This document shows positions 36,641-55,547 of a stretch of 64,000 nt of DNA, in pieces. A program made the translations under genes and the position numbers. The notes beneath the pieces were generated by a model. It saw only the letters and a list, made by a program, of their open reading frames with translations. It searched no databases and had not been told where the DNA came from. The stretch lies in contig OY969556.1 of the NCBI GenBank assembly GCA_963701015.1, forward strand, positions 3,500,424-3,564,423, in the 5' to 3' direction. The stretch is from an uncultured Bacteroidota bacterium (GTDB lineage Bacteria > Bacteroidota > Bacteroidia > Bacteroidales > DTGW01). The stretch's first letter is position 1, and every line of letters starts with the position of its first letter.

Positions 36641-36654
36641 TGTGCAAATCGTGT
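36638..36654 (+). repeat. 17-bp subterminal direct repeat, copy 1 (ttgtgtgcaaatcgtgt)
   Basis: Identical 17-mer at 55206-55222 in the same orientation. Both copies lie just inside the att repeats. Confidence 0.8.
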
Positions 36655-36679
36655 CTCCAAAAACAAACTTGCACACCCT

Positions 36680-37927: not shown

Positions 37928-37935
37928 TTATACCC

Positions 37936-39429: not shown

Positions 39430-39600
39430 AAAACGACAGAATATAAAATAGGTTCCCTAATTTCTCTAAAAAAAACCTATTTTGTCAATTTTTAAATATC
39501 TGATATTTAATATTATATATACTTTATTTTCTTTATAGGTTTTTTGGAATCCCTATTTTTCAGGTATTTACTTGCATCCATAATTTATAAATAAAAAATT

Positions 39601-39963: not shown

Positions 39964-39972
39964 TAGTTCACA

Positions 39973-40254: not shown

Positions 40255-40261
40255 TATTTAC

Positions 40262-41023: not shown

Positions 41024-41087
41024 TAAGTGGATACATAAGGAGAACTATTTTTATTTCTATTTGACTTCAAAAATTAGAATCAATTCT

Positions 41088-41095
41088 TAAATTTG
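41088..41095 (+). promoter_or_regulatory. candidate -7 promoter box (TAnnTTTG) for the type I R-M operon
   Basis: taaatttg lies 92 nt upstream of the hsdR ATG. Confidence 0.3.
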
Positions 41096-41186
41096 ATGTT
41101 TGCTCAAAAAAGTCGTTCAAGTCCTTATTTTTAATAAAATTAGCACTTAAAACTATTATATAATCTAAATATATTAAGATTTCATA

Positions 41187-44186
41187 ATGTCCGAAAACCA
41201 AATAGAAGAAAACCTTATCAAGCAACTAACTGAGTTGAAGTACAACTATCGACCTGATATAGTTGATAGAAAAACGCTTGAACAGAACTTCAAAAATAAG
41301 TTTGAAACACTGAATCGTGTTCATCTTACAGAAAGCGAATTTTTACGTTTGCGTGAAGAAATTATTAATCCTGATCTATTTGTAGCATCTAAGATGCTTC
41401 GTGAAAGAAACTACTTTCAACGTGAAGACGGCACTCCTTTACATTATACCTTAGTAAACATCAAGGATTGGTGCAAAAATGATTATGAAGTTATCAATCA
41501 ATTACGCATCAATACTGAAAATAGTAATCACCGGTACGACATTATTTTACTGATTAATGGATTGCCTGTTGTTCAAATTGAATTAAAAAAAATAGACATT
41601 TCGCCACGAAAAGCTATGCAGCAAATTGTGGACTATAAAAATGATTCTGGAAACGGATATAGCAATACATTGATGTGTTTCATGCAGTTGTTTATTGTAA
41701 GCAACAGCAACAAAACTTATTATTTTGCGAATAATAAAAACCAGCATTTCAGTTTCAATGCCGATGAACAGTTTTTACCTATTTACGAATTAGCAGACGA
41801 AAACAATAAGAAAATTAACTATTTGGAAGAGTTTGCTGAAAAGTTTCTTAAAAAATGCACCCTTGGCGAAATGATAAGCAAGTATATGGTTTTGGTCGAA
41901 AGCGAACAGAAATTACTTGTGATGCGACCGTATCAAATTTATGCGGTAAAAGCAATAGTTGATTGCATACAACAAAATCGGGGCAATGGCTATATATGGC
42001 ACACTACAGGTAGTGGCAAAACTCTCACTTCTTTCAAAGCTTCTACCCTGTTAAAAGACAATCCCGATATTGAAAAATGCCTTTTTGTGGTTGACCGTAA
42101 AGACCTTGACCGACAAACCCGTGAAGAGTTCAATAAATTTCAAGAGGGCAGCGTTGAAGAAAACACCAATACCGAAACATTGGTGAAGCGTTTACTATCT
42201 ACCGACTACGCCGACAAGGTTATTGTTACCACTATTCAAAAATTAGGGTTGGCTTTAGATGGCACTTATAAGAAAAACTACAAAGAACGCTTAGAGCCAT
42301 TGAGCAAAAAGCGTGTTGTTTTCATATTTGACGAGTGCCACCGTTCACAGTTTGGCGATAATCACAAAGCCATAAAAGAGTTTTTCCCGAATGCTCAATT
42401 ATTTGGTTTTACTGGTACACCTATATTTGATGAAAATGCTACTTATAAGATTAGAGAAGATGAATATGGTGCATATAATACTACTGAGGATATATTTCAA
42501 AAAAGATTACACGCATACACCATTACCCACGCCATAGACGATAGAACCGTTCTTAAATTTCATATTGATTATTTCAAAGGCAAAGGCACTCAAAACCCCA
42601 AGCCTGGCGAACCTATTGCTCAACAGGCAGTAGTTGAAGCCATTCTCGACAAGCACAATGCAGCTACCAATTCAAGACGTTTCAATGCAACACTTGCAAC
42701 GGCTTCTATCAATAATGCCATTGAATATTATCAGTTATTCAAAACCATCCAAAAACAGAAGCAAGTAGAAAACGAGGATTACATTTCACTTAATATTGCT
42801 TGTGTATTCTCCCCGCCATCTCAATTAATTGCTAAAGATGGCGACCAACAAAGTCAAAAGAATGCAGCAGACATAAAACAACTTCAAGAAGATTTAACGC
42901 AGGAGAAAGAAGACAACAAACAAAATCCTGAAGAAAAGAAAAATGCTTTAATAGAAATTATTGCCGACTACAATTTGCAGTTTGGAACGAATCACTCTAT
43001 AAATGAATTTGATTTGTACTATCAAGATGTGCAACGGCGCATCAAAGACCAAAAATATAGCAACAAAGACTATCCGCACAAAAACAAAATTGACATTACC
43101 ATAGTGGTAGATATGTTGCTCACAGGTTTTGACTCCAAATACCTCAATACTTTGTATGTGGACAAAAACCTGAAATACCACGGATTGATACAGGCATTTT
43201 CCCGCACCAACCGTGTACTGAATGACACCAAGCCCTACGGGAATATTTTGGATTTCCGTTCACAACAAGATGCCGTAAATCAAGCAATTGCACTATTTTC
43301 AGGTGAAGACAGTGGAAAAGCAAAAGAAATTTGGTTGGTTGACCCTGCACCTGTTGTGATTGATAAATACAAACAAGCAGTTGAAGCCTTGGGCGTTTTT
43401 ATGAAAGAACACGATTTGTCAAACGAACCACAAGAAGTGTATAACCTGCAAGGTGATGCTACTCGCATAGCGTTTGTAAAAAATTTTAAGGAAGTACAAC
43501 GGTTAAAAACCCAATTAGACCAATACACCGACTTAGACGAAACACAACAAGCCAAAATTGAAGCCATTTTGCCTAAGGAAGCCTTACAAGAGTTTAAAAG
43601 CTCATATATAGAAACTGCCAAGCAATTGAGACTAATACAGCAAAAAGATGGCGACCAGGCACCTCCCGAAGTGCAACAATTAGATTTTGAATTTGTGCTT
43701 TTTGCTTCTGCCATTATTGATTACGACTATATAATGAACCTGATAGCCGACAGTACGCAAAAGAAACCAGCAAAGCAAAAGATGACCAAAATACAGGTGA
43801 TTAGCATACTGAGTGCTAATGCCAACCTGATGGACGAGCAGGAAGATTTAACGGAATACATTAATGGGCTTGACTGGAATAGTGGACAAGATGTAAACAC
43901 TTTACGAAAAGGGTACGAAACTTTTAGAGTCGTGAAAAATGAAAAGGAATTAGCTACCATAGCCCACAAACACGGATTGCAAACGTCAGACTTAAAAACT
44001 TTTGTAGCTAAAATAATGAGCCGAATGATTTTTGACGGGGAAAAACTCACTGACTTATTAGAACCACTTGAACTAAGCTGGAAAGAACGCAGGGTAAAAG
44101 AACTGGCTTTAATGGAAGACTTAGTACCCCAATTAAAAAAAATAGCCCAAGGGCGTGACATATCAGGATTAGCAGCTTATGAGTAA
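41187..44186 (+). CDS. hsdR: type I restriction endonuclease subunit R (EcoR124-like, type IC-style)
   Basis: 999 aa. N-terminal nuclease block NRYDIILLINGLPVVQIELK, helicase motif I TTGSGKT, motif II FIFDECHRSQ. Confidence 0.9.
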   Translation: MSENQIEENLIKQLTELKYNYRPDIVDRKTLEQNFKNKFETLNRVHLTESEFLRLREEIINPDLFVASKMLRERNYFQREDGTPLHYTLVNIKDWCKNDYEVINQLRINTENSNHRYDIILLINGLPVVQIELKKIDISPRKAMQQIVDYKNDSGNGYSNTLMCFMQLFIVSNSNKTYYFANNKNQHFSFNADEQFLPIYELADENNKKINYLEEFAEKFLKKCTLGEMISKYMVLVESEQKLLVMRPYQIYAVKAIVDCIQQNRGNGYIWHTTGSGKTLTSFKASTLLKDNPDIEKCLFVVDRKDLDRQTREEFNKFQEGSVEENTNTETLVKRLLSTDYADKVIVTTIQKLGLALDGTYKKNYKERLEPLSKKRVVFIFDECHRSQFGDNHKAIKEFFPNAQLFGFTGTPIFDENATYKIREDEYGAYNTTEDIFQKRLHAYTITHAIDDRTVLKFHIDYFKGKGTQNPKPGEPIAQQAVVEAILDKHNAATNSRRFNATLATASINNAIEYYQLFKTIQKQKQVENEDYISLNIACVFSPPSQLIAKDGDQQSQKNAADIKQLQEDLTQEKEDNKQNPEEKKNALIEIIADYNLQFGTNHSINEFDLYYQDVQRRIKDQKYSNKDYPHKNKIDITIVVDMLLTGFDSKYLNTLYVDKNLKYHGLIQAFSRTNRVLNDTKPYGNILDFRSQQDAVNQAIALFSGEDSGKAKEIWLVDPAPVVIDKYKQAVEALGVFMKEHDLSNEPQEVYNLQGDATRIAFVKNFKEVQRLKTQLDQYTDLDETQQAKIEAILPKEALQEFKSSYIETAKQLRLIQQKDGDQAPPEVQQLDFEFVLFASAIIDYDYIMNLIADSTQKKPAKQKMTKIQVISILSANANLMDEQEDLTEYINGLDWNSGQDVNTLRKGYETFRVVKNEKELATIAHKHGLQTSDLKTFVAKIMSRMIFDGEKLTDLLEPLELSWKERRVKELALMEDLVPQLKKIAQGRDISGLAAYE

Positions 44187-45450
44187 AGAGATAAATAAAT
44201 TGATACCTGAATTGCGGTTTCCTGAATTTGAGAATGAGGGAGAATGGGAGGTAACGAAATTTGAAAAACTTTGCAAGTTTATTCGTGGCCCATTTGGAGG
44301 CGCTCTTAAAAAAGAAATTTTTGTCAAGGATGGTTATGCTGTTTATGAACAGTCACATGCTATCTACAATGACTTTAGCTCATTTAGATATTTCATAACA
44401 GAAGAGAAATTCAATGAGTTAAAACGCTTTTCAATACTTCCTTTTGATATTATAATGAGCTGTTCAGGTACTATGGGTAAGTTTGCTATAGTTCCAAAAG
44501 AGGCAAAAAAAGGAATTATAAACCAAGCTCTTTTAAAGTTAACTGTAAGAGAAGTCTATAATGTTAATTTCGTTAAAGAAATTTTGGAATTACCAGTTAA
44601 TCAGGATAAGTTGTTATCTCAATCTGCTGGTGGTGCAATAAAGAATGTGGTTGAAGTTGCACAAATTAAAGAGATTAAGTTATCAATTCCCAAACTCAAA
44701 GAACAACAAAAAATCGCCTCATGTCTTTCTTCCTTAGATGCTGTAATTGCAGCCCATAGCCAAAAATTAGAAGCCTTAAAAGACCAAAAAAAAGGCTTAT
44801 TGCAAAACCTTTTCCCACAAGAAGGTGAAACTGTGCCGAAATATCGTTTCCCTGAGTTTGTAAAAGATGAGGTGTGGGTGGAGAAAACTTTGGATGAAGT
44901 AGCAACATTTTTAAAAGGAAAAGGAATATCCAAAGCTGATATAGTTGAAAATGGGAGTTTACCATGTATCAGATATGGAGAACTTTATACCCACTACAAA
45001 GAAACTATTGGTATTATAAAATCTTATACGAATTTAAGTGCAGATGATTTAGTGTTAAGTCAAGCTAATGATGTAATTATTCCAGCATCAGGTGAAACCC
45101 AAATTGATATTGCCACAGCATCTTGTGTCTTAGAAAAAGGAATCGCCCTTGGAGGTGATTTAAATATTATTAGGTCAAAGATTAATGGTGTTTTTTTATC
45201 TTATTACCTGAATAATGTTAAGAGAATGGATATAGCGCAATTGGCTCAAGGTATTTCAGTAGTTCATCTTTATCCTAATCAATTAAAAACATTAATGATT
45301 AATATTCCGAAACCAAAGGAGCAAGAAAAAATCGCCAGTTGTCTTTCTTCTTTAGATGATTTATTCACGGCACAAATGGAGAAAATAGAGCAATTGAAGC
45401 TGCACAAAAAGGGTTTGATGCAGGGCTTGTTTCCAAAAGTAATTGATTAA
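44179..45450 (+). CDS. hsdS: type I restriction-modification specificity subunit
   Basis: 423 aa. Two target-recognition halves, each followed by the conserved helix IPK(L/P)KEQ(Q/E)KIASCLSSLD. The start overlaps the hsdR stop by 8 nt. Confidence 0.9.
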   Translation: MSKEINKLIPELRFPEFENEGEWEVTKFEKLCKFIRGPFGGALKKEIFVKDGYAVYEQSHAIYNDFSSFRYFITEEKFNELKRFSILPFDIIMSCSGTMGKFAIVPKEAKKGIINQALLKLTVREVYNVNFVKEILELPVNQDKLLSQSAGGAIKNVVEVAQIKEIKLSIPKLKEQQKIASCLSSLDAVIAAHSQKLEALKDQKKGLLQNLFPQEGETVPKYRFPEFVKDEVWVEKTLDEVATFLKGKGISKADIVENGSLPCIRYGELYTHYKETIGIIKSYTNLSADDLVLSQANDVIIPASGETQIDIATASCVLEKGIALGGDLNIIRSKINGVFLSYYLNNVKRMDIAQLAQGISVVHLYPNQLKTLMINIPKPKEQEKIASCLSSLDDLFTAQMEKIEQLKLHKKGLMQGLFPKVID

Positions 45451-45453
45451 AAT

Positions 45454-46575
45454 ATGAGCCCTAAAATCACAAATTATAAATACAAAACACTAACCAATGT
45501 AGCAGTTAGGTTAAGAGATGATTTAAACGACCATCACTTTGTATTATTATATGCATATAATGGTACAGGAAAAACCCGCCTTTCAATGGAATTTAAAGAT
45601 AGAAGCAAAAAGCGAAAGAAAAATCCTTTAACAGATACGCTTTATTATAATGCATACACAGAAGACCTTTTCCATTGGAACAATGACCTTGAAAATGATA
45701 CTGAGAGGCATTTGATAATCAATAAAAATTCAAGATTTTTTGAAGGGTTCAGGGAATTAGCACTTGAAGAAAAAATATTTAATTTTCTTGAACGATATGC
45801 TGATTTTAATTTTAATATAAATTACGATGATTGGCTCATTGTTTTTAGAAAGCAGGTTAAAAATCCAAAATACAAACCTGAAACAGAGGAATTAGAATAT
45901 ATAACCCAAAACAACATTAAGGTATCAAGAGGTGAAGAAAATATTTTTATTTGGTGTATTTTTCTTGCTATATGTGAGTTAGCCATTGACGGTGACGAAT
46001 CTTATAGTTGGGTAAAATATATTTATATTGATGATCCAATTTCTTCACTTGATGACAATAACGCCATTGCCGTAGCTAGTGATTTGGCTCAATTACTAAA
46101 AAGAGGAAAGGACAAAGTAAGAGTTGTTATCTCTTCGCACCATTCGTTATTTTTTAACGTAATGTATAACGAACTTAGGTCTATTGAGCATAAAAGCCAT
46201 TTTTTACATAAGAACAGTTCGGAAGGGTATATATTGAGAGCTACAGATGACACCCCGTTTTTTCATCACGTTGCTTTGTTGACCGAATTAAAAAAAGCAT
46301 CAGATACAGAAAAGATAAACACATATCATTTTAATATGTTACGTAGCGTCTTGGAAAAGACTTCAACTTTCTTTGGGTACGACGAATTTTCCAAATGTAT
46401 ATACGGTTTAGAAGATGAAGTGCTTTTTTCTCGTGCCTTAAATTTGTTAAGTCATGGAAAATATTCAATATACCAACCTACTGAAATGAATGAAGATAAC
46501 AAAGAGCTATTTAAAAGAATATTGAATGCGTTTTTGGAGAAACACAAATTTCAATTACCTGAAATATTTGCTTAA
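45454..46575 (+). CDS. AAA_13-type ATPase, PrrC-like anticodon nuclease candidate
   Basis: 373 aa. Walker A YNGTGKT, ABC-signature-like VSRGEEN, Walker B YIYIDDPISSLD, and a C-terminal R-x3-E...H pattern (LRSVLE, then SHG 33 residues after the Glu). Embedded between hsdS and hsdM. Confidence 0.6.
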   Translation: MSPKITNYKYKTLTNVAVRLRDDLNDHHFVLLYAYNGTGKTRLSMEFKDRSKKRKKNPLTDTLYYNAYTEDLFHWNNDLENDTERHLIINKNSRFFEGFRELALEEKIFNFLERYADFNFNINYDDWLIVFRKQVKNPKYKPETEELEYITQNNIKVSRGEENIFIWCIFLAICELAIDGDESYSWVKYIYIDDPISSLDDNNAIAVASDLAQLLKRGKDKVRVVISSHHSLFFNVMYNELRSIEHKSHFLHKNSSEGYILRATDDTPFFHHVALLTELKKASDTEKINTYHFNMLRSVLEKTSTFFGYDEFSKCIYGLEDEVLFSRALNLLSHGKYSIYQPTEMNEDNKELFKRILNAFLEKHKFQLPEIFA

Positions 46576-46586
46576 AAAAATTACAA

Positions 46587-48236
46587 ATGACACAAAAAGA
46601 ACAACAACAACTGGGTAAAACCCTTTGGAATATAGCCGATGAACTAAGAGGTGCAATGAATGCAGATGATTTTCGAGATTATATGCTTTCGTTTCTTTTC
46701 CTTCGGTATTTATCATACAACTACGAAGAATCAGCAAAAAAGGAATTAGGAAAAGATTACCCTGATGATACTCTAAAGGATGTTATGTCAAAACTTAAAG
46801 TTAAAACACCTTTGGAGATTTGGTATAAAGAAAACCCAAAGGAAGTTGAAGATTTTGAAAAGCAAATGAGGCGTAAAGTTCATTATGTTATCAAACCACA
46901 ACACCTATGGAGCAATATTACCGAATTGGCACGTACTCAAGATGGAGAGTTACTAAAAACTTTGGGGAAAGGTTTTAAATACATAGAAAATGAATCGTTT
47001 GAAGGTTCTTTTCAGGGTTTATTTTCTGAAATTAATTTGAACTCTGAAAAACTAGGAAAAACAGAAACGGAAAGAAATAAAAAACTCTGTACCATCATTC
47101 AAAAAATTGCTGAAGGTATAGCAGATTTTTCAACAGATTCCGACACCCTTGGCGATGCTTATGAGTATTTAATTGGACAGTTTGCCGCAGGTTCGGGTAA
47201 AAAAGCGGGCGAGTTTTATACGCCACAACAAATCTCAACCATCTTATCTGAAATCGTAACATTAGACAGTCAAGACCCAACAATGGGTAAGAAGAAAAAA
47301 TTTGATAAAGTGCTTGATTTTGCTTGCGGTTCAGGTTCTTTATTGCTGAATGTAAGAAAACGAATAAAAGATAATGACGGCACTATTGGCAAAATATATG
47401 GGCAGGAAAAGAACATAACTACTTACAACCTTGCCCGAATGAATATGCTTTTGCACGGTATGAAAGACACGGAGTTTGAGATATTTCACGGTGACACACT
47501 TCTCAATCAATGGGATATGCTCAACGAAATGAATCCATCTAAAAAAATTGAATTTGATGCTATTGTAGCTAATCCACCGTTTAGTTTACGTTGGGAACCA
47601 GACGATACGTTGGCAGAAGACTTTCGTTTTAAAAGCTATGGTTTAGCGCCAAAATCAGCAGCCGACTTTGCTTTTTTATTACATGGTTTTCACTTTCTTG
47701 GGAAAGAGGGTACAATGGCTATTATATTACCGCATGGTGTTTTATTCCGTGGCGGCGCAGAAGAAAAAATCCGTACCAAACTTTTAAAAGATAACAATAT
47801 TGATACGGTAATTGGGTTGCCTTCAAACTTATTCTATTCAACTGGTATTCCTGTTTGTATTTTGATATTGAAAAAATGCAAAAAGGAAGATGATGTACTT
47901 TTCATTAATGCCAGTGAACATTATGAAAAAGGCAAACGTCAAAACACCCTCAGAGAAGGCGAAGACGGTGAACCAAACGATATTCAAAAAATTGTTGAAA
48001 CATATCAATTCCGTCCTGAAAATGTTGAAAGATATGCTCGTAGAGTTTCAATGGAAGAAATCGAGAAGAACGGCTACAATCTTAACATTTCAAGATATGT
48101 AAGTACATCATTTGACGAAGTACAGATTGACTTAAAAAAAGTAAACACAAAATTGACAGCAATAAATGAAAGTATAAAAACGAACACAGTTAAACACAAT
48201 GAATTTTTGAAAGAGTTGGGATTACCCCCTATTTAA
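46587..48236 (+). CDS. hsdM: type I restriction-modification DNA methyltransferase subunit (N6-adenine)
   Basis: 549 aa. GEFYTPQQIS, SAM-binding DFACGSGSLL, catalytic IVANPPFS. Confidence 0.92.
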   Translation: MTQKEQQQLGKTLWNIADELRGAMNADDFRDYMLSFLFLRYLSYNYEESAKKELGKDYPDDTLKDVMSKLKVKTPLEIWYKENPKEVEDFEKQMRRKVHYVIKPQHLWSNITELARTQDGELLKTLGKGFKYIENESFEGSFQGLFSEINLNSEKLGKTETERNKKLCTIIQKIAEGIADFSTDSDTLGDAYEYLIGQFAAGSGKKAGEFYTPQQISTILSEIVTLDSQDPTMGKKKKFDKVLDFACGSGSLLLNVRKRIKDNDGTIGKIYGQEKNITTYNLARMNMLLHGMKDTEFEIFHGDTLLNQWDMLNEMNPSKKIEFDAIVANPPFSLRWEPDDTLAEDFRFKSYGLAPKSAADFAFLLHGFHFLGKEGTMAIILPHGVLFRGGAEEKIRTKLLKDNNIDTVIGLPSNLFYSTGIPVCILILKKCKKEDDVLFINASEHYEKGKRQNTLREGEDGEPNDIQKIVETYQFRPENVERYARRVSMEEIEKNGYNLNISRYVSTSFDEVQIDLKKVNTKLTAINESIKTNTVKHNEFLKELGLPPI

Positions 48237-48445
48237 TATTAAATTGGGTATGTTTTCTTTGCCCATAAAGTCCATTAGAATATATAATGTGGTTCCTTAT
48301 TACCATAAAGTTGATGTTGTTGTTGGTTAAGAATTTATGTCTTTATCAACTTTATTTTCTGTGGTATACTAATCATTTATTAACAAACTGCCTCTTTTTA
48401 TATGAATTTTTATTAACTTCATAGCTTCTTTTTCGTACAATTAAA

Positions 48446-48453
48446 TATATTTG
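48446..48453 (+). promoter_or_regulatory. candidate -7 promoter box (TAnnTTTG) for the 48504-49984 gene pair
   Basis: tatatttg lies 51 nt upstream of the ATG at 48504. Confidence 0.4.
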
Positions 48454-48503
48454 TACAGTTATAATTTACTCGCTTTTAAGTAAGTTTAATTAAATAAAAC
48501 AAA

Positions 48504-49019
48504 ATGACTGATTCACTTTATGCTGAAAATATTGACTTTTTAGCTGCAAATAAAAAGGATGAGGAATTTTTTAATTCAAGTGAAGCACACGCCCAAATAG
48601 TTTTATCATCTATGGTGAAATATTCCAATAAAGATGTTAATATCTATTGTGGGAACATGTGTACTGACGTTTCTAATGACCCTACGTATTTAAAAGAAAT
48701 CAAATCATTTTTAGATGACCGTAATGGCACTATTAATGTATTATTGTGTGATTATAACGATTCATTTAAAGAAAAAGAAATATATAAATTATTGTCTGCT
48801 TACATTCCTTTAAAGGTTAAAGTAAAAAAGACAAAAAAGGTACTCTTATTTAATAACAAACCTGTTCATTTTACTATATCAGACAGCTCAGCTTTTCGTT
48901 TAGAAACAGACATTGATGCTAAAATGGCTAGGGGTAATTTCAATGACCCTAACAGTGCAATTAAATTAAACGAGTATTTTTTTACTTTATTTAATCAACA
49001 GGCCAGCACTGAAGTTTAA
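48504..49019 (+). CDS. hypothetical soluble protein, 171 aa, unknown family
   Basis: Clean ORF with its own promoter-like box and no TM segment. The secondary-structure layout is only vaguely reminiscent of a single Nuc-type PLD domain, and there is no HxK(x)4D motif. Confidence 0.5.
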   Translation: MTDSLYAENIDFLAANKKDEEFFNSSEAHAQIVLSSMVKYSNKDVNIYCGNMCTDVSNDPTYLKEIKSFLDDRNGTINVLLCDYNDSFKEKEIYKLLSAYIPLKVKVKKTKKVLLFNNKPVHFTISDSSAFRLETDIDAKMARGNFNDPNSAIKLNEYFFTLFNQQASTEV

Positions 49020-49033
49020 ATTTAAAGCTTAAA

Positions 49034-49984
49034 ATGTCGTTACTTAACACAATCTCAGATTATACTGACATAATTGCTATTTCAATAGGTTTAAATCTTG
49101 CTTATGTTATTATAACTAACTACACATTAAAAGGTAATGATAATAAAGCAAGTTTTTTCGACATACTATCTCTATATGTTGATAGTGCTATAAGTCGTAT
49201 AGTTAAGAGAAAATCAAAAAAGTTAATTACATTAAAAAATCTACAACTTAAGCTTGAATATTATTTAGCTTCAAAATCTTCAAATAACAGTGAAAAAAAA
49301 GCTATTGTAAAGAATATTGATGATGAGCTCAAAAATATTGACACATCAGTAAATGATTTAATTGAGAATAAAAAAATAAAAGTTAAAAGAGCTATAAGAG
49401 CTAAATACTATTCTCATATTTCATTATTACTTGCAACTTATGGTATTTTTATTCTTTTCTTATCTCCTTTAGAAAAAAGAATTTTTCTAAGCTTTAACAG
49501 CATATTAGTTTATTTAAATTTTATCACTTTTTTTTGTGTCATACATTCAATTATTTGGGAATTTCAAACTCTTTATATAAAAATTAAGAAACTAAGTATA
49601 TTAAATACTATTATTTGTGATTTGAGTAATTTATTAGCTCCAAGATTTCGCAACATTATATATTCTCAATTTATTTTTATTATAGCTTTAATAATTGCTA
49701 TTTATTGTAAATATTTTAATACTTATGTTGCCTTGAAATTTCCATTTTTTTATAGAAATGCTTTAGTATTTGCAACGGTTTTACTTTTTTCAAATTTTAT
49801 ATTTTATACAATTTTTTGTTTTATTCGTGTTGAAATTGTTGTAAGTCGCTTTAAACGAAAATTAAAAGCTCTTGATATTTCAAATAAAGTAATAACTTAC
49901 AATGGCCTGTTAGCTCCTATATTAAAGGATTTAGAAAATGACCCATTAGTTGTTGTTTCAGAAATTGTTTTAACACAGAAATAG
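49034..49984 (+). CDS. hypothetical integral membrane protein, 316 aa (1 N-terminal TM, charged linker, about 4 C-terminal TMs)
   Basis: Hydrophobic stretches IIAISIGLNLAYVIITNY, ISLLLATYGIFILFLSPL, ILVYLNFITFFCVIHSIIW, IIYSQFIFIIALIIAIYC, LVFATVLLFSNFIFYTIFCFI. Starts 14 nt after the preceding ORF. Confidence 0.5.
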   Translation: MSLLNTISDYTDIIAISIGLNLAYVIITNYTLKGNDNKASFFDILSLYVDSAISRIVKRKSKKLITLKNLQLKLEYYLASKSSNNSEKKAIVKNIDDELKNIDTSVNDLIENKKIKVKRAIRAKYYSHISLLLATYGIFILFLSPLEKRIFLSFNSILVYLNFITFFCVIHSIIWEFQTLYIKIKKLSILNTIICDLSNLLAPRFRNIIYSQFIFIIALIIAIYCKYFNTYVALKFPFFYRNALVFATVLLFSNFIFYTIFCFIRVEIVVSRFKRKLKALDISNKVITYNGLLAPILKDLENDPLVVVSEIVLTQK

Positions 49985-50218
49985 TAAGTGGCTTAACATT
50001 TAGTTGCATGTAATCCATGTCAAATAGAAAATTTTCTAATTTTCCAAATCAAATATTCCTCACCGCACTAGCAGGTTACATTGGCTTTAATATTGGCAAA
50101 GCCTAATCCAATTATAAGTTGTGGCAAAACAGGTATTTTCACGGCAAACAATACTAAATTTTGAATTATACTGTTATAAGTTGTTATTTTATGGTTGTAA
50201 TAAATTCTTTAAAACTCC

Positions 50219-50932
50219 ATGAAATCTATAATTTCACTTTTGCTTTTAATATATCCCTTTGCTTTATTTGGTCAGTTTAACATCAATTCCGTATTACCTC
50301 AGAAAGTAAAAAATGCAAAACTTATAAAATATTCCAGTTACGAAGTAATGTTCGATACAATTGAATGTGCGCCTGTTTATTCAGCTTATATAATAACAAA
50401 ATCTGAAATTTCGCACCATTCAATTAAAAGGGCAAAAGAAAGATTCAAAAATGATAAGTCAGTGTCATGTGTAAAAGTAAAAAATTATACAAACTCAGGC
50501 TATGACAAAGGCCATTTAACCCCGGCTGCCGATATGGAATATTCTCAGCAAAGCATGGACGATTGTTTTTATATCACAAATATTTGCCCTCAGTTACATG
50601 ATTTCAATGCTGGTATTTGGGAACATTTAGAAATGAAAGTAAGAGATTGGGCAGAAAAATACGATAGTTTGTTAATCATCAGCGCACCAGTATTAGAAAC
50701 TTGCATAAAAAAAGGAAATCTCACAGTCCCAACCCAATTTTACAAAATAATTTACTCCATTCAGCAAAACACAGCCACCGCCTTTTTAATGGATGCCAAC
50801 CTGATCGAAGGTTCAATATTCAATTATCAAACCACAGTCTCAAAAATTGATAGCATTACAAAGCTCAATTATTTCAAAGTAAATGGTAGTTCAAACAGGT
50901 TAAATTTTATGGATACTAATTTTTTGAAATGA
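50219..50932 (+). CDS. secreted DNA/RNA non-specific endonuclease (Endonuclease_NS / NucA family)
   Basis: 237 aa with signal peptide. Active-site block SGYDKGHLTPAAD (DRGH-type) followed by NICPQ...FNAGIWEHLE. Confidence 0.8.
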   Translation: MKSIISLLLLIYPFALFGQFNINSVLPQKVKNAKLIKYSSYEVMFDTIECAPVYSAYIITKSEISHHSIKRAKERFKNDKSVSCVKVKNYTNSGYDKGHLTPAADMEYSQQSMDDCFYITNICPQLHDFNAGIWEHLEMKVRDWAEKYDSLLIISAPVLETCIKKGNLTVPTQFYKIIYSIQQNTATAFLMDANLIEGSIFNYQTTVSKIDSITKLNYFKVNGSSNRLNFMDTNFLK

Positions 50933-51127
50933 ATTTTGATAATTATATACAAGTAATATATTAAAAGCGAAAATAATGTTAAAAATTAAATGGTTTTCTA
51001 AGGGTAACTCTTATAAAGGCGGTTGGGAGTTAAATATTATGACAAGTACATACCAATTACGTATAGCGCAGTATCAATTTGCGTTATGGAAAAATTATAA
51101 TGCTATATTTAATCTTTTAAATTTTGC

Positions 51128-51415
51128 TTAACTACATTCAGGAAGACTAAGAAGATTATCCACAGTTGTATCGTCTGATGTAGTTCTAAGATATTTACGC
51201 CCATTATGTGTAGATATAAAGACATTTACATCTCTATTGCCTACCTTAACATGATAATTATAAATTCCTTGCTCGATGTGTCTTATACCCTCTTCTTCTG
51301 TTATTTTAATACGGTTGCCATAAGTTCCCCAATCACCTCCTATGTGTGTTATTCTTTGGTGTGAGTCCTGTCTTAAAGGTTTGTTGATACATTTAATCTG
51401 TCTAGAAGTTGCCAT
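51128..51415 (-). CDS. DUF3892 domain protein
   Basis: 95 aa. The pattern ITHIGG...W...I...I......Y.V......V.V......KYLRT..D....DNLLSLPEC matches DUF3892 as I remember it. Confidence 0.65.
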   Translation of the reverse strand: MATSRQIKCINKPLRQDSHQRITHIGGDWGTYGNRIKITEEEGIRHIEQGIYNYHVKVGNRDVNVFISTHNGRKYLRTTSDDTTVDNLLSLPECS

Positions 51416-51461
51416 AATATTAGATTTAAAGTTAATAAATAAAAATTAAGGTTTCAATTAC

Positions 51462-51614
51462 TTATTTAGATTTAGTTTTTTTACCTGGCCTTGTTTGCGC
51501 TAAGTCTGAGCCTGCAACAGATTTTTCTCTTTTTGTTGAATGAGGGTCTTTCAATATTTTAGCTGCTATGCTTGCAACTTTTTTTGAGGTCTGCTTTGAA
51601 TTTTTTTGTACCAT
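51462..51614 (-). CDS. possible small basic protein (50 aa), below the ORF-track cutoff
   Basis: Hand translation gives MVQKNSKQTSKKVASIAAKILKDPHSTKREKSVAGSDLAQTRPGKKTKSK. It lies 46 nt upstream of, and co-oriented with, the DUF3892 gene. Confidence 0.3.
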   Translation of the reverse strand: MVQKNSKQTSKKVASIAAKILKDPHSTKREKSVAGSDLAQTRPGKKTKSK

Positions 51615-51914
51615 AATTTTAAGTTTTAGTTAATTTAAAACGTTATTAAAATTAAATAATTATTACAGATTTAACAGCAATAATTAATCTAGTTTATGAA
51701 GTTAAAGAATAATTGTATTGTATATTTTATTAAATATTGTCCTAATAGTTTATCAAAAATTAAGCAATGATATCATGTAAGTGTCTATAATACAAATGTT
51801 TGAATTATTAACTTAAATTATTATAATATTTCATATAATATTTGTTTCTTTACATTGTGGTAAAACAATTTATTAACAATCTGCAAAGTCATCTTTTTAA
51901 AACAAAAAGAATAT

Positions 51915-51922
51915 TAATTTTG
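51915..51922 (+). promoter_or_regulatory. candidate -7 promoter box (TAnnTTTG) for the DUF4065 operon
   Basis: taattttg lies 50 nt upstream of the ATG at 51972. Confidence 0.4.
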
Positions 51923-51971
51923 CACATTTTTTGCAGTGTTCTCTTAAATTAATAAAGTAATATTTTTAATT

Positions 51972-52589
51972 ATGTTTAGAATATTACAAAATAATATTAT
52001 CGGGAATATCTTAATTTCTTTCGCTGAAAAAATTCCTTATCTTTCTTTAACAAAGGCTTTAAAACTTTTATATTTATTAGATGAGCATTCTGTTAAGGAA
52101 ATTGGCGTTCCTGTAACTTGGCTTGAATATAAAGTTTGGGAATTAGGTCCAGTTGCAGAAGATATCTATAATGAAATTAAATACAGCGAAAAAATTAGTA
52201 TTTATGGTAAAGTAACATCTTTAGATGAATTCATTACAATAAAGAAAGGGGCAAATAATGCTAAAAAAACCGAAGAGACTTATATTTTAGCTAAAAAAAC
52301 ATTTGATGAATCCGAATTTACAGAATATGAGTTAGAGTTAATAAACAGTATTATAGAAAAATATGGTAAACTTAATGCTAAAGAACTTGTAGATTTATTG
52401 CATAAAGAAAATACACTTTGGTCTAAAATTGTTAAAGAAAATAATCTGACAGAGCACTTCAAAAAATTTAATAGTAAATCAAATTATACAATTCCTTTTA
52501 GTAATTTAATTGATAATGAACTAAAGGAGATGGCTTATAATGCTGCTTTCGAATCGCTTGATTTTGAAAAAGAGTTAACTGCTAATTAA
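51972..52589 (+). CDS. Panacea (DUF4065) domain protein, SocA/PanA-type antitoxin candidate
   Basis: 205 aa. LTKALKLLYLLDEHSVKEIGVPVTWLEYKVWELGPVAEDIY fits the DUF4065 core (KLxYLxD...G.P....Y.aW..GPV). Confidence 0.7.
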   Translation: MFRILQNNIIGNILISFAEKIPYLSLTKALKLLYLLDEHSVKEIGVPVTWLEYKVWELGPVAEDIYNEIKYSEKISIYGKVTSLDEFITIKKGANNAKKTEETYILAKKTFDESEFTEYELELINSIIEKYGKLNAKELVDLLHKENTLWSKIVKENNLTEHFKKFNSKSNYTIPFSNLIDNELKEMAYNAAFESLDFEKELTAN

Positions 52590-52601
52590 AAGTATTTTAA
52601 A

Positions 52602-53075
52602 GTGCCTTCTCTATTTAAATTTGAGCCTGCTTCCATTTATAAAGTCAATAATTACGTATTTGATGATGATAATTCTGTTAGAGATAAATATCTGATTGTT
52701 TTACACATTAATCAAGATGAACTATATCTAATTAATACATTAACCACTACAAATAAAAGAACAGGAAAACAAGATGTATTTAATGGCTGTAATTCTCTGG
52801 ATGGTTTTCATTTTTATTTCTTTCAAGAAAAGCATGAAATAGGGAAAGAGAAATTCTTTTTTGATAAAGATACTTATATATTCTTCTATAAAAACATAAG
52901 AAAACAACCTATTAGTAAATATGATGAGCATATAAAAAATAGCAGTATAATGAAATTGGACTCATTAACTGATTATGAATATGGTAGATTATTGAAGTGT
53001 ATTTTAAAAACCAAACATATTACTCCCGATATAAAAAAAGAGTTGACAACAGTTAAGGAAGGTATTTCAAATTAG
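52602..53075 (+). CDS. hypothetical protein, candidate toxin partner of the DUF4065 protein
   Basis: 157 aa, GTG start 12 nt after the upstream stop. The N-terminal pattern (IYKVNNYVF...RDKYLIVLH...LINTLTT) is loosely MazF/PemK-barrel-like. No firm family. Confidence 0.4.
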   Translation: MPSLFKFEPASIYKVNNYVFDDDNSVRDKYLIVLHINQDELYLINTLTTTNKRTGKQDVFNGCNSLDGFHFYFFQEKHEIGKEKFFFDKDTYIFFYKNIRKQPISKYDEHIKNSSIMKLDSLTDYEYGRLLKCILKTKHITPDIKKELTTVKEGISN

Positions 53076-53953
53076 CATTACAAACTAAATTCATTCTATT
53101 TCTTATTCAAAACGATTAATTGGTATTTCTCATTATTCTATGTCAAGCATTACACCTGCCCTTATGTCTAATAAAATATAAAACAAAATTTATGGAAAAC
53201 ATCCCACAGGGCAAAAAACCCAGATGTTTGGCAAAATAAATTGTTAATATTTTAAAGGTATTTTACCAAACACCCCCTGTCTTTTTTGCCCCTCCACTCA
53301 GCCGTCCCTTCTGTAATTTTTTCTGTCATGCTTTTTGTATCAGCCCACATGCAGCACATTGCTTTTTCTCTAATTGTTTTAAAGCGGTATTAAAAAGCAA
53401 AGAGCTGCCCAACCCCACAAACAAAAAGACCCGCCAAAAAAAATTACCCCAAGCTATGTTTACATAATGTGCATTATATAACTGCCTATTTAAGCGGTAT
53501 AAATAACATGTTTTCGGCATTCATATAATGAACATTATGTACAAGGGCGTTGCCAAATAGCCACACGCCGACCCACGCCAGACACACACAGCCGGCACAT
53601 TGTATTTTGTTTTTTATCATGTTTATTTTTTAAGGTAAAAACAAAATCCAAAGAGCCGCCTGTCAGCCATTCCAATGGTGCAAGAGCTGTAAAAAAGCCA
53701 GCCACCACTCTAAATCCAACCTAAAATGTCTTTTTTTCAGCACTTGCATTCTCTTTAATCCACCAACAAACCCCGACCACCACCCCTATTAAAGTGGTGT
53801 AAACATCTATTTAAGCTATTGAAACGAGAATAACCCCGACAAGCTCCCTGCAAACTCGCAAACCCAGAGCCGGGGTTATTTCCCGTTCCAACAGCACATC
53901 ATTATCAACATTATAGTAAATTAGCCATCACTCAAACTAAGCGGCCACTATCT

Positions 53954-54025
53954 CGTTGCACACTTCACAAACTCTCCGTTGCACTTCGTTGTTTGCTTGT
54001 GTTCACTTCGTTACTGTCCACTTAC
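53954..54025 (+). repeat. iteron-like array: four CACTT(C/A) cores, two embedded in CGTTGCAC(AC)TTC and two in CACTTCGTT
   Basis: Cores at 53961-53966, 53982-53987, 54004-54009 and 54019-54024, spaced 21, 22 and 15 nt. Confidence 0.6.
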
Positions 54026-54227
54026 TTTTTACCCAATGCACAATGAATTAGGGTTACGCACATTAAGAAATAAGCGGTATTTACATATTAAAAAATAAAA
54101 AAGGGCAGCAAATTTAGGCTGGCTCACACATGCCCTCACTAAACAAAAAAGCAAGGAATTTCCGGCATAAACACAAGCCACTGCTTAAAAGCCCTCATTT
54201 ATTCCGTTCCTCCTTGCTTTTTTCCTA

Positions 54228-54268
54228 AAGCCAGCCAGTTCAATGGCTTTCTTTTTCTTTTTTTCTCG
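54228..54268 (+). terminator. intrinsic terminator at the end of the ORF-free block
   Basis: aaagcca (54228-54234) pairs with tggcttt (54244-54250) across a 9-nt loop, followed by ctttttctttttttctcgtttttt. Confidence 0.5.
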
Positions 54269-54379
54269 TTTTTTCTTTCTCTTTTGAAAAATGTATTTTA
54301 ATAATGAAGATATAAAGGTGCATTTTGAAGCAAATCTCAGCATAAGAACCATTTATATATAACTATAATATCATTAAAG

Positions 54380-54387
54380 TAATTTTG
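54380..54387 (+). promoter_or_regulatory. candidate -7 promoter box (TAnnTTTG) upstream of the DUF6266-like gene
   Basis: taattttg lies 115 nt upstream of the ATG at 54502. The 14-nt direct repeats at 54424-54459 lie between the box and the start codon. Confidence 0.3.
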
Positions 54388-54423
54388 ATAAGGATTTGAT
54401 AAACTGATGTATTAGGACTAAAA

Positions 54424-54459
54424 TATTACCAAGTCTATACCAAAGTATTACCAAATCTA
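54424..54459 (+). promoter_or_regulatory. two 14-nt direct repeats (TATTACCAA[G/A]TCTA) spaced 22 nt; candidate operator
   Basis: Copies at 54424-54437 and 54446-54459 with 13/14 identity, about 45 nt upstream of the ATG at 54502. Confidence 0.4.
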
Positions 54460-54501
54460 AGTTGTTTTAAAATAAAGTATAAACCTCAAAAATTTAAAAA
54501 G

Positions 54502-55143
54502 ATGGGTATAATAAAACAAGGTATTTTAGGTGGTGTTTCCGGCGGAGTCGGAACAGTCATTGGTGGTTCATGGAAAGGAATTGATTATGTTAGGTCACGT
54601 CCAAGCTCTGTTACAAATCCAAATTCAGACAAGCAACAAAGCCAGCGATCTAAATTCTCAACTGTAATAAGCTTTTTAAAGCCACTTACTGGCTTAGTAA
54701 CAGTCACTTTTAGAAACTATGCGATAGGTATGTCAGGCTTTAATGTGGCAATGTCTTATAATATCAAGAATGCAATAACCGGAACCTCTCCTGACTTCAC
54801 AATTGATTATACATTAGCCTTACTTAGTCAGGGCGATCTTTCAAAAGCCTTTAATCCTAAAGTTGCAGTTTCGGGAAGTAATACTATTGCATACACATGG
54901 GTAAACAATAGTGATGAAGGAAACGCCAATGAAGATGACCAGGCAATATTAATGGCATATTTTGAAAGCAATGGCCAAGCAGTCTATCAGTTTACAACCG
55001 TAAAAAGAACCGCTGCAACCGCTAATTTAAGCATTCCTGCAAGTTATACGGGATTAGTTGCAAAATGCTGGATAGCATTTCAAACAGCTGATGGTCTAGA
55101 CTTTTCAAATAGTATTTATGTTGGAGAAGTTACTATGGCTTAA
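54502..55143 (+). CDS. DUF6266-like protein
   Basis: 213 aa. The Gly-rich N-terminus GILGGVSGGVGTVIGGSWKGIDYVRSRP...NPNSDKQQSQRSKF resembles Bacteroidota DUF6266 family proteins from memory. Confidence 0.45.
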   Translation: MGIIKQGILGGVSGGVGTVIGGSWKGIDYVRSRPSSVTNPNSDKQQSQRSKFSTVISFLKPLTGLVTVTFRNYAIGMSGFNVAMSYNIKNAITGTSPDFTIDYTLALLSQGDLSKAFNPKVAVSGSNTIAYTWVNNSDEGNANEDDQAILMAYFESNGQAVYQFTTVKRTAATANLSIPASYTGLVAKCWIAFQTADGLDFSNSIYVGEVTMA

Positions 55144-55205
55144 TTAATTCGATTAGTTTATTATATTAAAATGCCATTCTTTAGGATGGTATTTTTTTTA
55201 TAATG

Positions 55206-55222
55206 TTGTGTGCAAATCGTGT
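55206..55222 (+). repeat. 17-bp subterminal direct repeat, copy 2 (ttgtgtgcaaatcgtgt)
   Basis: Identical to 36638-36654. Lies 54 nt inside attR. Confidence 0.8.
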
Positions 55223-55230
55223 GTAAATTT

Positions 55231-55267
55231 AAATAAAAGAGGGCTCCCATTTATGTGAAAGCCCTTT
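55231..55267 (-). terminator. hairpin plus T-run downstream (minus strand) of tRNA-Ala, on island-derived DNA
   Basis: agggct (55240-55245) pairs with agccct (55260-55265). The complement of aaataaaa gives a T-rich run on the minus strand. Confidence 0.4.
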
Positions 55268-55276
55268 ATTTGCGGG

Positions 55277-55321
55277 TGGAGAATATCGGAGTCGAACCGA
55301 TGACCTTTTGCATGCCATGCA
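55277..55321 (-). repeat. attR: 45-bp direct repeat forming the 3' part of the intact tRNA-Ala
   Basis: Identical to 36471-36515. Confidence 0.9.
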
Positions 55322-55350
55322 AACGCTCTAGCCAGCTGAGCTAATCCCCC
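55277..55350 (-). tRNA. tRNA-Ala (anticodon GGC)
   Basis: Hand-folded from the reverse complement. Acceptor GGGGGAT/ATTCTCC with the G3:U70 Ala identity pair, D stem GCTC/GAGC, anticodon stem TTTGC/GCAAA with loop ATGGCAT, T stem ATCGG/CCGAT with loop TTCGACT. 74 nt, no encoded CCA. Confidence 0.9.
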
Positions 55351-55547
55351 GTGAATTTTCAATGCGTCTGCAAAAATATAAAAAAACTTATATCATTTCT
55401 GATTTTGATAAAGAATTCCGCATATTTCTTAATAATTCTTAAATCCAAAGATTATTACAGCATTATACATATCAATCTGTATGGAATTTGTGTTTATCAT
55501 TGGAATAAATTATTCATTCAAAATTTTATAAATCTAATATCCATATC

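Follow-up and report, generated by a model that had tools for sequence, protein, structure and literature searches.

A covarying hairpin family of Bacteroidota mobile DNA places the host -7 box in an unpaired bubble and may act as a promoter on single-stranded DNA

Single-strand promoters are known from enterobacterial-type plasmids, in which they time the expression of anti-defence genes during conjugation. The Frpo/ssi promoters of F, ColIb-P9 and related conjugative plasmids were reportedly described as single-stranded DNA promoters by Masai and Arai in 1997. We know of nothing comparable described for the Bacteroidota, a phylum with different promoters, in whose gut and environmental communities mobile elements dominate gene flow; our literature search found no single-strand promoter described for it. 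In other phyla, Frpo precedes establishment and anti-defence genes and primes the complementary strand (Samuel et al., 2024, PMC11541004); the Bacteroidota are not mentioned in that study. Here we analyse a block free of plausible open reading frames (ORFs) at 53076-54501 of a 64-kb window, the whole stretch of DNA examined, which derives from an uncultured Bacteroidota bacterium. The block precedes a gene of the DUF6266 family and contains a long imperfect hairpin, element B, which belongs to a new, widespread family of structured elements, not represented in Rfam, on the mobile DNA of Bacteroidota. The members carry the promoter box of the host phylum in an internal bubble, and the fold is the more stable on the strand that serves as template for the downstream gene. 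We put at roughly 45% the probability that element B, like Frpo/ssi, is a hairpin that serves as promoter or priming site on single-stranded DNA, adapted to the Bacteroidota sigma factor. The features of the window copy are as follows.

54085-54297, minus strand: element B, a long imperfect hairpin of a conserved family (profile match E 2.5e-34)
54109-54116, minus strand: -7 box TAAATTTG, an exact Bacteroidota sigma-A TAnnTTTG, in the internal loop between stem P0 and the outer stem
54116-54124: left strand of P0, AGGCTGGC, paired with AGCCAGCC at 54229-54236
54145-54223: stem P1, 54145-54157 paired with 54211-54223 over 13 perfect base pairs, with the invariant CAAGG/CCTTG (inverted repeat I12, 13 nt, perfect)
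54246-54286, plus strand: pyrimidine tract, the right strand of the outer stem

From its base inward, element B consists of an outer stem, a bubble that holds the -7 box, stem P0 and stem P1, and in the family at large the distal part branches into P2 and P3. DUF6266 relatives were collected from genomes, metagenomes and assemblies (individual loci carry L numbers), and a profile finds one copy of element B per locus, 270-500 nt before DUF6266, at 11 distinct loci. The alignment reads, from left to right, A tract, CAGCAAnnTAGGCGG, a variable stretch, TCAAGGTCAAGCCCTNCGGGTT, an A/T-rich hairpin, AAAAACCTTGAC, CCGCCT and a 40-nt pyrimidine tract. In this DUF6266-linked subfamily the outer stem is formed by the A tract (54090-54108 in the window) paired with the pyrimidine tract (from 54245). 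The latter is unique in the window and was also found upstream of DUF6266 in L004, L016 and L005 by a tract scan; a scan of viral contigs with the tract pattern gave 42 matches, all in unrelated coding sequence.

The fold is supported by compensatory change. RNAalifold places 33 pairs in the alignment of the 11 loci, 19 of them with compensatory changes. In a seed of 10 related sequences, whose effective sequence number is 3, 92.6% of cells pair, as compared with 77.9% in shuffled alignments and 38-55% once the pairing partners are shifted against each other; both sides have changed in 17 of 34 pairs, and none of 500 shuffles reaches any of these measures. Changes on one side alone are nearly absent, and 89-93% of pairs are Watson-Crick. 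P0 (helix 1) illustrates the pattern, with 4 of its 7 pairs changed on both sides: it reads AGGCGGG/CCCGCCT, AGGCGGTTT/AAACCGCCT or AGGCAGT/ACTGCCT in relatives. Beyond the bubble, every member has an outer stem of 15-27 bp, built from unrelated sequences, with z scores of -4 to -6.3 in members without low complexity; the single-stranded DNA fold of L112 has a z of -5.6. A covariance model (R1) scores the window copy at 38 bits (E 8.5e-6, 54110-54244) and also detects copies that lack DUF6266.

Two described classes of folded mobile DNA were considered and rejected. Integron attC sites are a poor match, as GTTAGGC occurs in the L112-type copies only and other copies read GATAGGC, AATAGGC or TTTAGGC; the integrase of the host island, of the Bacteroidota tRNA-targeting type, also speaks against them. 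An inverton is contradicted by the orientation of the 20-plus copies, all of which face the downstream gene in the same way, and nested internal helices are, to our knowledge, no feature of invertons.

The family extends beyond DUF6266. A search with the P1/P2 pattern identified seven IMG/VR contigs that have the same architecture and no DUF6266 gene. The genes downstream encode an ArdC-N-like protein, a MutS_I (MutS domain I) fragment, a DnaJ-domain protein, a 77-aa membrane protein or, in another context, a 315-aa protein followed by a methylase-SNF2 helicase fusion. One of these contigs is a small integrative element, and two are tailed-phage contigs with terminase and portal genes; no DUF6266 protein was found in viral contigs. 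Searches with blastn revealed further copies on plasmids of Bacteroides, Parabacteroides and Phocaeicola, as well as on pMMCAT, and a shorter match in the rep-mobC intergenic region of a 4.9-kb MOBP plasmid of Marivirga tractuosa, where the covariance model did not report a copy. On the latter plasmid (pFTRAC01, L132 ~4785-4800), GCATCCTGT resembles the MOBP nick-region consensus ATCCTG and lies upstream of mobC, ~40-150 nt to the right of the blastn match; if it is the nick site, it would fix the transferred strand relative to the element. The conjugative plasmid NZ_CP041396.1 of B. ovatus (117 kb) carries three co-oriented copies and none elsewhere, within near-identical repeats of ~330 nt at 87.3-93.0 kb of the record:

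L134 4740-4990: B. ovatus copy 1
L134 5910-6220: B. ovatus copy 2
L134 10375-10700: B. ovatus copy 3

Each of these copies precedes an operon of small genes, one of which includes DUF2958 and an orphan N6 methylase, whereas a divergent neighbouring operon with a cytosine methyltransferase has no copy.

The bubble contains the most conspicuous signal of the family. TAnnTTTG is the -7 box consensus of the primary sigma factor of the Bacteroidota, and TAnnTTGY is a variant shorter by one base (PMC9723704). Left of P0, the plus strand reads CAAAnnTA in nearly all members; on the minus strand, the box at this place is exact or TAnnTTGY in 15 of 17 members and has one mismatch in the remaining 2. 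Its n positions vary freely (AC, TC, TT, AA, CC, AT), and the right-arm sequence opposite the box is neither conserved nor complementary to it. Stem P1, with its invariant CCTTG, supplies a TTG that is a candidate -33 element. Measured along the right arm, CCTTG and the base that faces the box's first T are 20 nt apart in 8 of the 11 DUF6266-linked copies, the window copy included (range 15-20), and ~18 nt apart in L127; the left arm is lengthened by a bulge of 0-22 nt. On the non-template arm, read from the loop towards the base, the -33 element comes before the -7 box. The optimal spacing between the flavobacterial -33 TTG and the -7 box is reportedly ~19 bp, a value from Chen et al. in J Bacteriol in 2007. 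Reading CCTTGACA as a sigma-70-type -35 element with a -10 element at 17 nt was also tried; it gave no consistent -10 and implies the wrong sigma factor for the phylum.

Such a box could also belong to an ordinary double-stranded control region, in which it would be a leftward promoter and the inverted repeats would be bidirectional terminators, insulators or co-evolving paired binding sites for proteins. In the window, the product would be a G-rich minus-strand transcript running through a neighbouring module (module C, below) to a hairpin of ~70 nt at 53890-53821. This hairpin folds at -53 kcal/mol on the minus strand as against -35 on the plus strand (z -7.3 vs -4.5). On the minus strand a U-rich run comes after the hairpin, which may there terminate a leftward transcript from the element B box. 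The box is exact, the block is C-rich on the plus strand, hence a leftward transcript would be G-rich, and in members without DUF6266 the distance from TTG to box in duplex DNA is 21-23 nt, near the working spacer. The phage contig L131 has its element in a divergent intergenic region with a second box, CAAAGGTA, 135 nt further left and a leftward operon beyond, so that the element's box could simply be a leftward promoter. In L129, the B-type element (2281-2407) precedes the ArdC-N-like gene, and its leftward TAnnTTTG box points to a Flavo-1 RNA (RF01705, 45.2 bits) on the minus strand at 2089-2182, ~100 nt to the left and on the strand of the box. A link of Flavo-1, for which we know of no function, to the establishment regions of mobile elements is possibly worth testing. 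An ordinary promoter does not explain, however, why four nested helices and an outer stem covary over 130-250 nt, nor why the element constantly faces the downstream gene on its other side. Read in duplex DNA, the box of the DUF6266-linked copies points left, with a spacer of 25-36 nt or with no fitting TTG, and a leftward transcript would open with a run of 6+6 U. To the left of B. ovatus copies 2 and 3 and of the element in L126, the genes lie on the element's strand, and transcription in that direction would yield antisense RNA only. We regard this reading as distinctly unlikely.

The two strands of element B do not fold equally well. DNA parameters give the more stable fold to the minus strand in 17 of 18 members (by a mean of 5.5 kcal/mol; Wilcoxon p 0.0003, a type of value that is optimistic here since the members are related); RNA parameters do so in 16 of 18, and G.T pairs are likewise more numerous on this strand. 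All downstream genes of the family, DUF6266 among them, have the minus strand as their template. Within the DUF6266-linked set, and one invariant P2 position aside, mismatches that read A.C on the plus strand (G.T on the minus strand) number 8-9 as against 0 for the converse, where composition alone predicts a ratio of ~2.4 to 1. The loop of P2, T-N-C on the plus strand with all four N seen, reads G-N-A closed by C-G on the minus strand. According to work ascribed to Hirao and co-workers, a G-N-A loop closed by C-G is said to be a very stable type of DNA triloop.

This asymmetry bears on a further alternative, namely that element B is a structured plus-strand RNA, a leader or intergenic regulator of mobile-element operons such as a protein-controlled terminator or one of the processive-antitermination type. 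P2 and a U run would then form a small intrinsic terminator within long-range helices, and in the DUF6266 subfamily the rod and its U-rich tract would insulate the cargo genes from DUF6266. In favour of an RNA are the fixed orientation to the downstream gene in all members, the multi-stem junction with strong covariation, the invariant G.U of P2 with its U-N-C-G loop (all four N seen), and the succession of A tract, stem and U tract around the element in the DUF6266 subfamily; the presence of copies in tailed phages would be explained. Upstream of the B. ovatus copies, a near-consensus plus-strand box, TATCTTTA, ends 2 nt before the element and could make an RNA leader, but the other members have no conserved plus-strand promoter at a fixed distance. 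Even with RNA parameters the fold is better on the opposite strand, one-sided G.U changes are almost absent but for one position, and A.C mismatches occur. Read as a UNCG tetraloop, P2 is left with a stem of two G-C pairs beside a C.U mismatch, and the exact TAnnTTTG with free n positions on the other strand goes unexplained. A terminator is suggested by the hairpin at 54227-54250 with its T-rich tract and by the stem at 54145-54223 with TTTTTT; P0, however, lies 8-10 nt from the pyrimidine/T tract, so this is no canonical terminator, and members without DUF6266 lack the tract. There is also no Rfam match. A plus-strand RNA is possible, if on balance unlikely.

We favour a hairpin that is read by polymerase when the DNA is single-stranded, and we infer both that the DNA passes through such a state and that polymerase uses the fold. 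A single-stranded minus strand, the DUF6266 template, as might arise after transfer or during rolling-circle replication, would fold into a rod of ~200-300 nt. P1 would supply the -33 TTG in duplex form; 18-20 nt further on along the template arm, TAnnTTTG would lie unpaired in the bubble on the non-template arm; and the outer stem of 15-27 bp would supply the downstream duplex. RNA polymerase could initiate ~5 nt beyond the box and leave the hairpin at its base, following the right arm into DUF6266, and the pyrimidine tract at 54246-54286 is the predicted first transcribed stretch. The transcript could also prime the complementary strand. Because the box in duplex DNA points left and mostly has the wrong spacer, the downstream gene would be driven from it only in the single-stranded state. 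The C excess of the plus strand could be the mirror of a G-rich, G.T-tolerant folding strand.

The likeness to Frpo/ssi comprises a hairpin of a few hundred nucleotides on one strand, promoter boxes in its stem, an unpaired -10-equivalent, an establishment-type gene that it faces, several co-oriented copies per element, and the wrong direction in duplex DNA. The long imperfect hairpin with conserved structure is present in element B, as are, at the level of sequence, sigma boxes in the right order, spacing and direction with a mismatched -10-equivalent. The differences are that no sequence similarity is found, that the boxes are those of Bacteroidota sigma-A and not TTGACA/TATAAT, that the distal part is branched, and that element B occurs on a tRNA-integrated island without recognised transfer genes and also on tailed-phage contigs. 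A wider proposal, which we hold still more tentatively, is that Bacteroidota mobile elements share an undescribed family of 200-300-nt hairpins that act as promoters on single strands only, use the -33/-7 grammar of the phylum and hold the -7 box pre-melted in the bubble. Expression of the first genes (DUF6266, ArdC-like genes, orphan methylases) would thereby begin while the incoming DNA is single-stranded; on this view DUF6266 would serve in establishment or anti-defence, and islands in tRNA genes would be transferred as single strands without a recognisable relaxase.

A number of observations weigh against a single-strand promoter. The promoter-like neighbourhoods described above belong here: the divergent region of phage L131, the Flavo-1 RNA of L129, and the plus-strand box before the B. 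ovatus copies. Two of three B. ovatus copies have TT for TA in the box. They lie ~50 kb from mobC and the relaxase gene, and if the relaxase gene enters last, which is the usual polarity, the transferred strand would be the wrong one. The two tailed-phage members belong to genomes whose DNA enters as a duplex. No relaxase, type IV coupling protein (T4CP), Rep or other replication gene was recognised on the island of the window with Pfam and NCBIfam. The window copy itself retains P0, P1 and the flanks, but where the family is most conserved, at P2 and P3, it has a different hairpin (~54158-54210); it is divergent and possibly decayed. The strand asymmetry, apart from the relatedness of the members, could arise partly from base composition, and the invariant G.T of P2 on the plus strand (A.C on the minus strand) with its U-N-C-G loop is also RNA-hairpin-like on the plus strand.

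Other described systems share parts of this design. The single-strand origins of rolling-circle plasmids (ssoA and ssoU types) and the minus-strand origin of filamentous phages are likewise orientation-dependent folds of single-stranded DNA with a promoter-like duplex, at which RNA polymerase makes a primer and structure is conserved above sequence. They differ in that they prime DNA synthesis and carry other loops (RSB, CS-6), whereas the geometry of element B is aimed at a downstream gene and no rolling-circle Rep gene accompanies it. The early hairpin promoters of phage N4 resemble it in the hairpin, the three-base loop, the use of the template strand and a duplex phage genome, and a mechanism like theirs would make the phage copies understandable. 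However, they have stems of 5-7 bp, are used by a polymerase carried in the virion and are extruded by supercoiling together with single-stranded DNA-binding protein (SSB); element B measures 200-300 nt and has host sigma-A boxes. Bidirectional intrinsic terminators offer a parallel in the A tract, stem and T tract at 54090-54286 between cargo and next gene, but not in the five covarying helices, the invariant asymmetric bubble, the stem-to-T-tract spacer of 8-10 nt or the members without a T tract. Flavo-1 (RF01705) and other Bacteroidota motifs of Rfam share the phylum and the mobile-element neighbourhoods, one of them adjoining the B-type element of L129; yet the block and element B match no Rfam model, and at E up to 10 the block yields only chance microRNA-type matches far below threshold. 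Rfam, the check proposed in the earlier note, returns no family at the block with either gathering or permissive thresholds, two tRNAs as its only matches in the whole window, and nothing at element B or the block in 12+8 related loci.

The block around element B is a real feature that goes beyond ordinary intergenic DNA. It extends as follows, between the stop codon of a 157-aa gene at 53075 and the start of DUF6266 at 54502.

53076-54501, no strand: ORF-free block, a mosaic of modules

The earlier note, made from the sequence alone, had drawn attention to its lack of genes and its skewed composition, and recounting bears both out. The single ORF of at least 60 aa within it is an implausible one on the minus strand (53326-53520, 64 aa), and the rest measure 44-57 aa. 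The stretch 53521-53820 contains 80 C and 42 G (GC 40.7%), which equals the hand tally of the note. As claimed, the neighbours are more AT-rich: 300-nt windows across 53100-54299 have a GC content of 0.34-0.43, as against ~0.24-0.27 just upstream. The GC skew in these windows runs from -0.20 to -0.415, and no other 1.1-kb stretch of the 64-kb window is as strongly negative as the one that starts at 53201 (-0.292). The short motifs listed in the note all recur, AACCCCGAC twice and AAGCGGTAT three times with every copy inside the block and none in the rest of the window. AAGCCAGCCA has two copies in the block and one at 11599, and CCGTTCC two in the block and three outside (3754 and 33247 on the plus strand, 1342 on the minus strand); because of these outside copies, their recurrence is near chance. 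Repeats that resemble GTTGCAC..TTCG can be read off the sequence at ~53955-54010. At least four inverted repeats had been claimed, and six were located, I12 of element B and the following five.

53209-53223/53277-53291: inverted repeat I10
53351-53367/53392-53408: inverted repeat
53461-53486/53516-53541: inverted repeat, 26 nt
53588-53614/53637-53663: inverted repeat I2, 27 nt
53829-53838/53871-53880: inverted repeat

Local folding was scored on both strands in 120-nt windows against dinucleotide shuffles. The z scores on the plus and minus strands are -3.3 and -4.3 at 53180-53299, -4.5 and -7.3 at 53780-53899, and -6.4 and -5.8 at 54140-54259, while z stays at ~0 in flanking coding sequence. 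The hairpin and T-run that the earlier note placed at 54228-54268 are present and form the right arm of element B.

One explanation offered for the block was a decayed foreign gene, to which a gene missed by ORF calling may be added. The raised GC content and the purine-poor plus strand would suit it, and three overlapping short ORFs on the minus strand at 53326-53708 could suggest a frameshift. Pfam gave no match above noise for any ORF of the block, and Pfam with NCBIfam gave nothing useful for these ORFs or for the unknown proteins of the island. A blastx comparison of the block with all ORFs of 24 related loci matched the start of DUF6266 alone, with no collinear translated similarity inside the block, and blastn of the whole block found no match in phage and plasmid collections. 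Between relatives, the conserved stretches differ by indels of 1-2 nt, not multiples of three, and the variation within them consists of compensatory changes in stems. A decayed or overlooked protein gene is thus hardly credible.

Instead, the block is a chain of separately conserved hairpin-forming modules (element A, an emptied cargo slot, module C and element B) followed by the ordinary promoter and leader of DUF6266. Used as an nhmmer query, it matches relatives in two independent parts, the left part (~53182-53580, element A) in L119, L112-L117 and L118, and the right part (block 850-1424, 53925-54499) in L112, L004, L069, L118, L119, L068, L072 and L016. The earlier note had allowed that the region might be absent or unconserved in otherwise homologous islands; its modules are conserved in homologous loci. 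The units to the left of element B are these.

53209-53291: long imperfect hairpin at the left edge of element A, formed by I10 (z -3.3 on the plus strand, -4.3 on the minus strand)
53276-53580: element A, with two hairpin domains, A-H1 (53330-53429) and A-H2 (53452-53561), and AAGCGGTAT in both loops
53588-53663: window-specific hairpin in the 3' part of element A, formed by I2, without counterpart in other A copies (alignments A3/A9)
53700-53925: variable middle or cargo slot, where relatives carry genes; in the window a 225-nt remnant with no more than the very stable hairpin at 53821-53890
53925-54045: module C, with GTTGCAC..TTCG-type repeats (alignment A4)

Element A covaries as well. 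It matches L119, L112 and L118 with nhmmer E values of 9e-16, 5e-14 and 2e-9, respectively, and RNAalifold places 56 pairs in five sequences of four distinct types, 8 of them with compensatory changes. The stem enclosing 53351-53408 is GCAGC/GCTGC in the window, GCTGC/GCAGC in L112, L116 and L118, and GTAGC/GCTAC in L119; inside it, TTGCTTTTT/AAAAAGCAA, TAGCCA/TGGCTA and TTGCAA/TTGCAA interchange. The outer stem of the hairpin at 53209-53291, GCAAAAAA/TTTTTTGC, is retained in L112 and L119 around a different inner stem (alignment A3). Element A has few wobble pairs, which are on the plus strand, and contains no -7 box in the geometry of element B; a scan of viral contigs with its pattern gave 0 matches. 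The three copies of AAGCGGTAT lie at 53382, 53492 and 54072, two in the loops of element A and the third just left of element B; the loop is identical in L118 and reads GCGGT or GTGGT in L112 and L119. It may be a protein-binding or nick site.

The modules occur separately in relatives. Between the parts homologous to A and B, L112 has genes for 129 and 419 aa and L118 a gene for 311 aa, whereas L119, like the window, has none; in L070, an ORF of 287 aa separates pieces that are contiguous in L069. Some island variants differ solely in the cargo left of element A. The region of module C (block 850-1215) matches L112 5352-5727 with an nhmmer E of 1e-28, where it follows the cargo genes; by eye it is ~90% identical between the window and L112 (alignment A4), as against 61% for the DUF6266 protein, and relatives other than L112 have a different module at this place. 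The DUF6266 of L004 is 93% identical to that of the window, yet the module upstream of it is of the L069 type, which indicates that modules are exchanged between close relatives. An analogous block of 1.45 kb in L069 is ORF-poor, GC-rich and C-skewed, with a left kilobase that cannot be aligned.

This modularity bears on the two remaining explanations of the earlier note. Of a long or composite non-coding RNA on the plus strand, the word composite holds; a single RNA unit is unsupported because the modules stand apart in relatives, split by one or two protein genes in L112, L118 and L070, and in element B, the best-defined module, the minus strand folds better than the plus strand. The other suggestion, a cis-acting origin for the excised island, comes closest insofar as a cis-acting folded DNA in a mobile element is concerned. 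In its specific form, the block would be an origin of transfer (oriT) or replication (oriV), with the hairpins as relaxase or Rep sites, the repeats as iterons and the AAGCGGTAT loops as nick or binding site. The dense inverted and direct repeats, the A+T tracts and the threefold loop motif confined to the block suit this, as does the Marivirga match, which occupies the expected place of an oriT or oriV, and a single-strand initiation site functionally belongs to an origin. But the island has no recognised gene for a relaxase, mobilisation, Rep or a primase, and no known nick-site consensus was found in the block; the modules occur apart, split by cargo genes in relatives, and the three B copies on one plasmid are distant from its mobC-relaxase genes. 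We consider an oriT or oriV very unlikely.

The block occupies the tRNA-proximal end of an integrated island of 18.8 kb (36516-55275) in a tRNA-Ala gene, identified as such by a 46-nt att repeat and an adjoining tyrosine integrase gene.

36470-36515: attL, exact direct repeat (46 nt) of the tRNA-Ala 3' part (100% in a blastn search of the window with 55150-55450, E 4.7e-21)
36638-37927, plus strand: tyrosine integrase (Pfam Arm-DNA-bind_5, Phage_int_SAM_5, Phage_integrase)
54380-54387, plus strand: TAATTTTG, candidate ordinary double-stranded -7 box of DUF6266, ~115 nt before the ATG
54417-54437/54439-54459, plus strand: two 21-nt direct repeats with a TATTACCAA core and 22-nt spacing, in the DUF6266 leader, downstream of the candidate -7 box
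54502-55143, plus strand: DUF6266 gene (PF19781, E 8e-66), the last gene of the island
55275-55350, minus strand: tRNA-Ala(GGC), with its 3' part at 55276-55321 as attR (ARAGORN, Rfam)

The cargo comprises two HTH_17/excisionase-like genes, unknown proteins of 497 and 253 aa, a type I restriction-modification system with an AAA_13 gene inserted between hsdS and hsdM, a non-specific (NS) endonuclease, a DUF3892 gene, a SocA/Panacea pair, the block and finally DUF6266. The island resembles a defence island without recognisable transfer genes. Varied defence cargo is seen in other islands that end in DUF6266 (L112 1-3221, L116/L117, L123 and L124), among it a Piwi-domain protein, McrBC, HEPN, an MmeI-like methylase, HIRAN plus WYL, AbiEii and SNF2.

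DUF6266 is the terminal gene of an island family, as follows from the tRNA that adjoins it in some loci and the boundary between defence and core genes in others. Among the loci whose upstream sequence is shared with the window, DUF6266 is followed after 130-180 nt by a tRNA gene on the opposite strand, tRNA-Ala in the window itself, tRNA-Val in L004 and tRNA-Met in L016 and L070, and L091 also has a tRNA-Met ~1.5 kb downstream; other DUF6266 loci have defence-type genes on one side and core genes on the other. The gene can be multicopy within a genome, with four loci in one metagenome-assembled genome and tandem paralogues in L013, L018 and L022. The genes of ~200 aa found upstream of DUF6266 at several loci were considered as a shared partner and are unrelated (TetR, a methyltransferase, an extracytoplasmic function (ECF) sigma factor, a cytochrome c). 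An AlphaFold2 (AF2) model of the protein, with a predicted local distance difference test (pLDDT) score of 84.7, consists of a glycine-rich N-terminal strand pair, two long helices and a C-terminal Fn3/Ig-like sandwich; a fold search with it returned generic Fn3/Ig-like matches only and no nucleic-acid function, and our literature search found no published work on the family. In the leader, the TAnnTTTG-like box at 54380-54387 is conserved at its column in most of 10 loci and TACCAAG..TA.CAA of the direct repeats is partially conserved (alignment A4); the repeats at 54417-54459 could be a regulator binding site.

The main interest of the window lies in the wider family to which its copy of element B led, with an exact host promoter box in a bubble and a fold that favours the template side. 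The block also illustrates how conserved non-coding modules frame a cargo slot in islands of defence genes. Even if the mechanism were RNA-based, element B would be a new and widespread structured element absent from Rfam. As a promoter active on single strands, it would allow a simple in-vitro test with the folded single strand and RNA polymerase, and it would show which strand is transferred. Being searchable by covariance, it would mark establishment genes of Bacteroidota mobile DNA, the uncharacterised DUF6266 family included.

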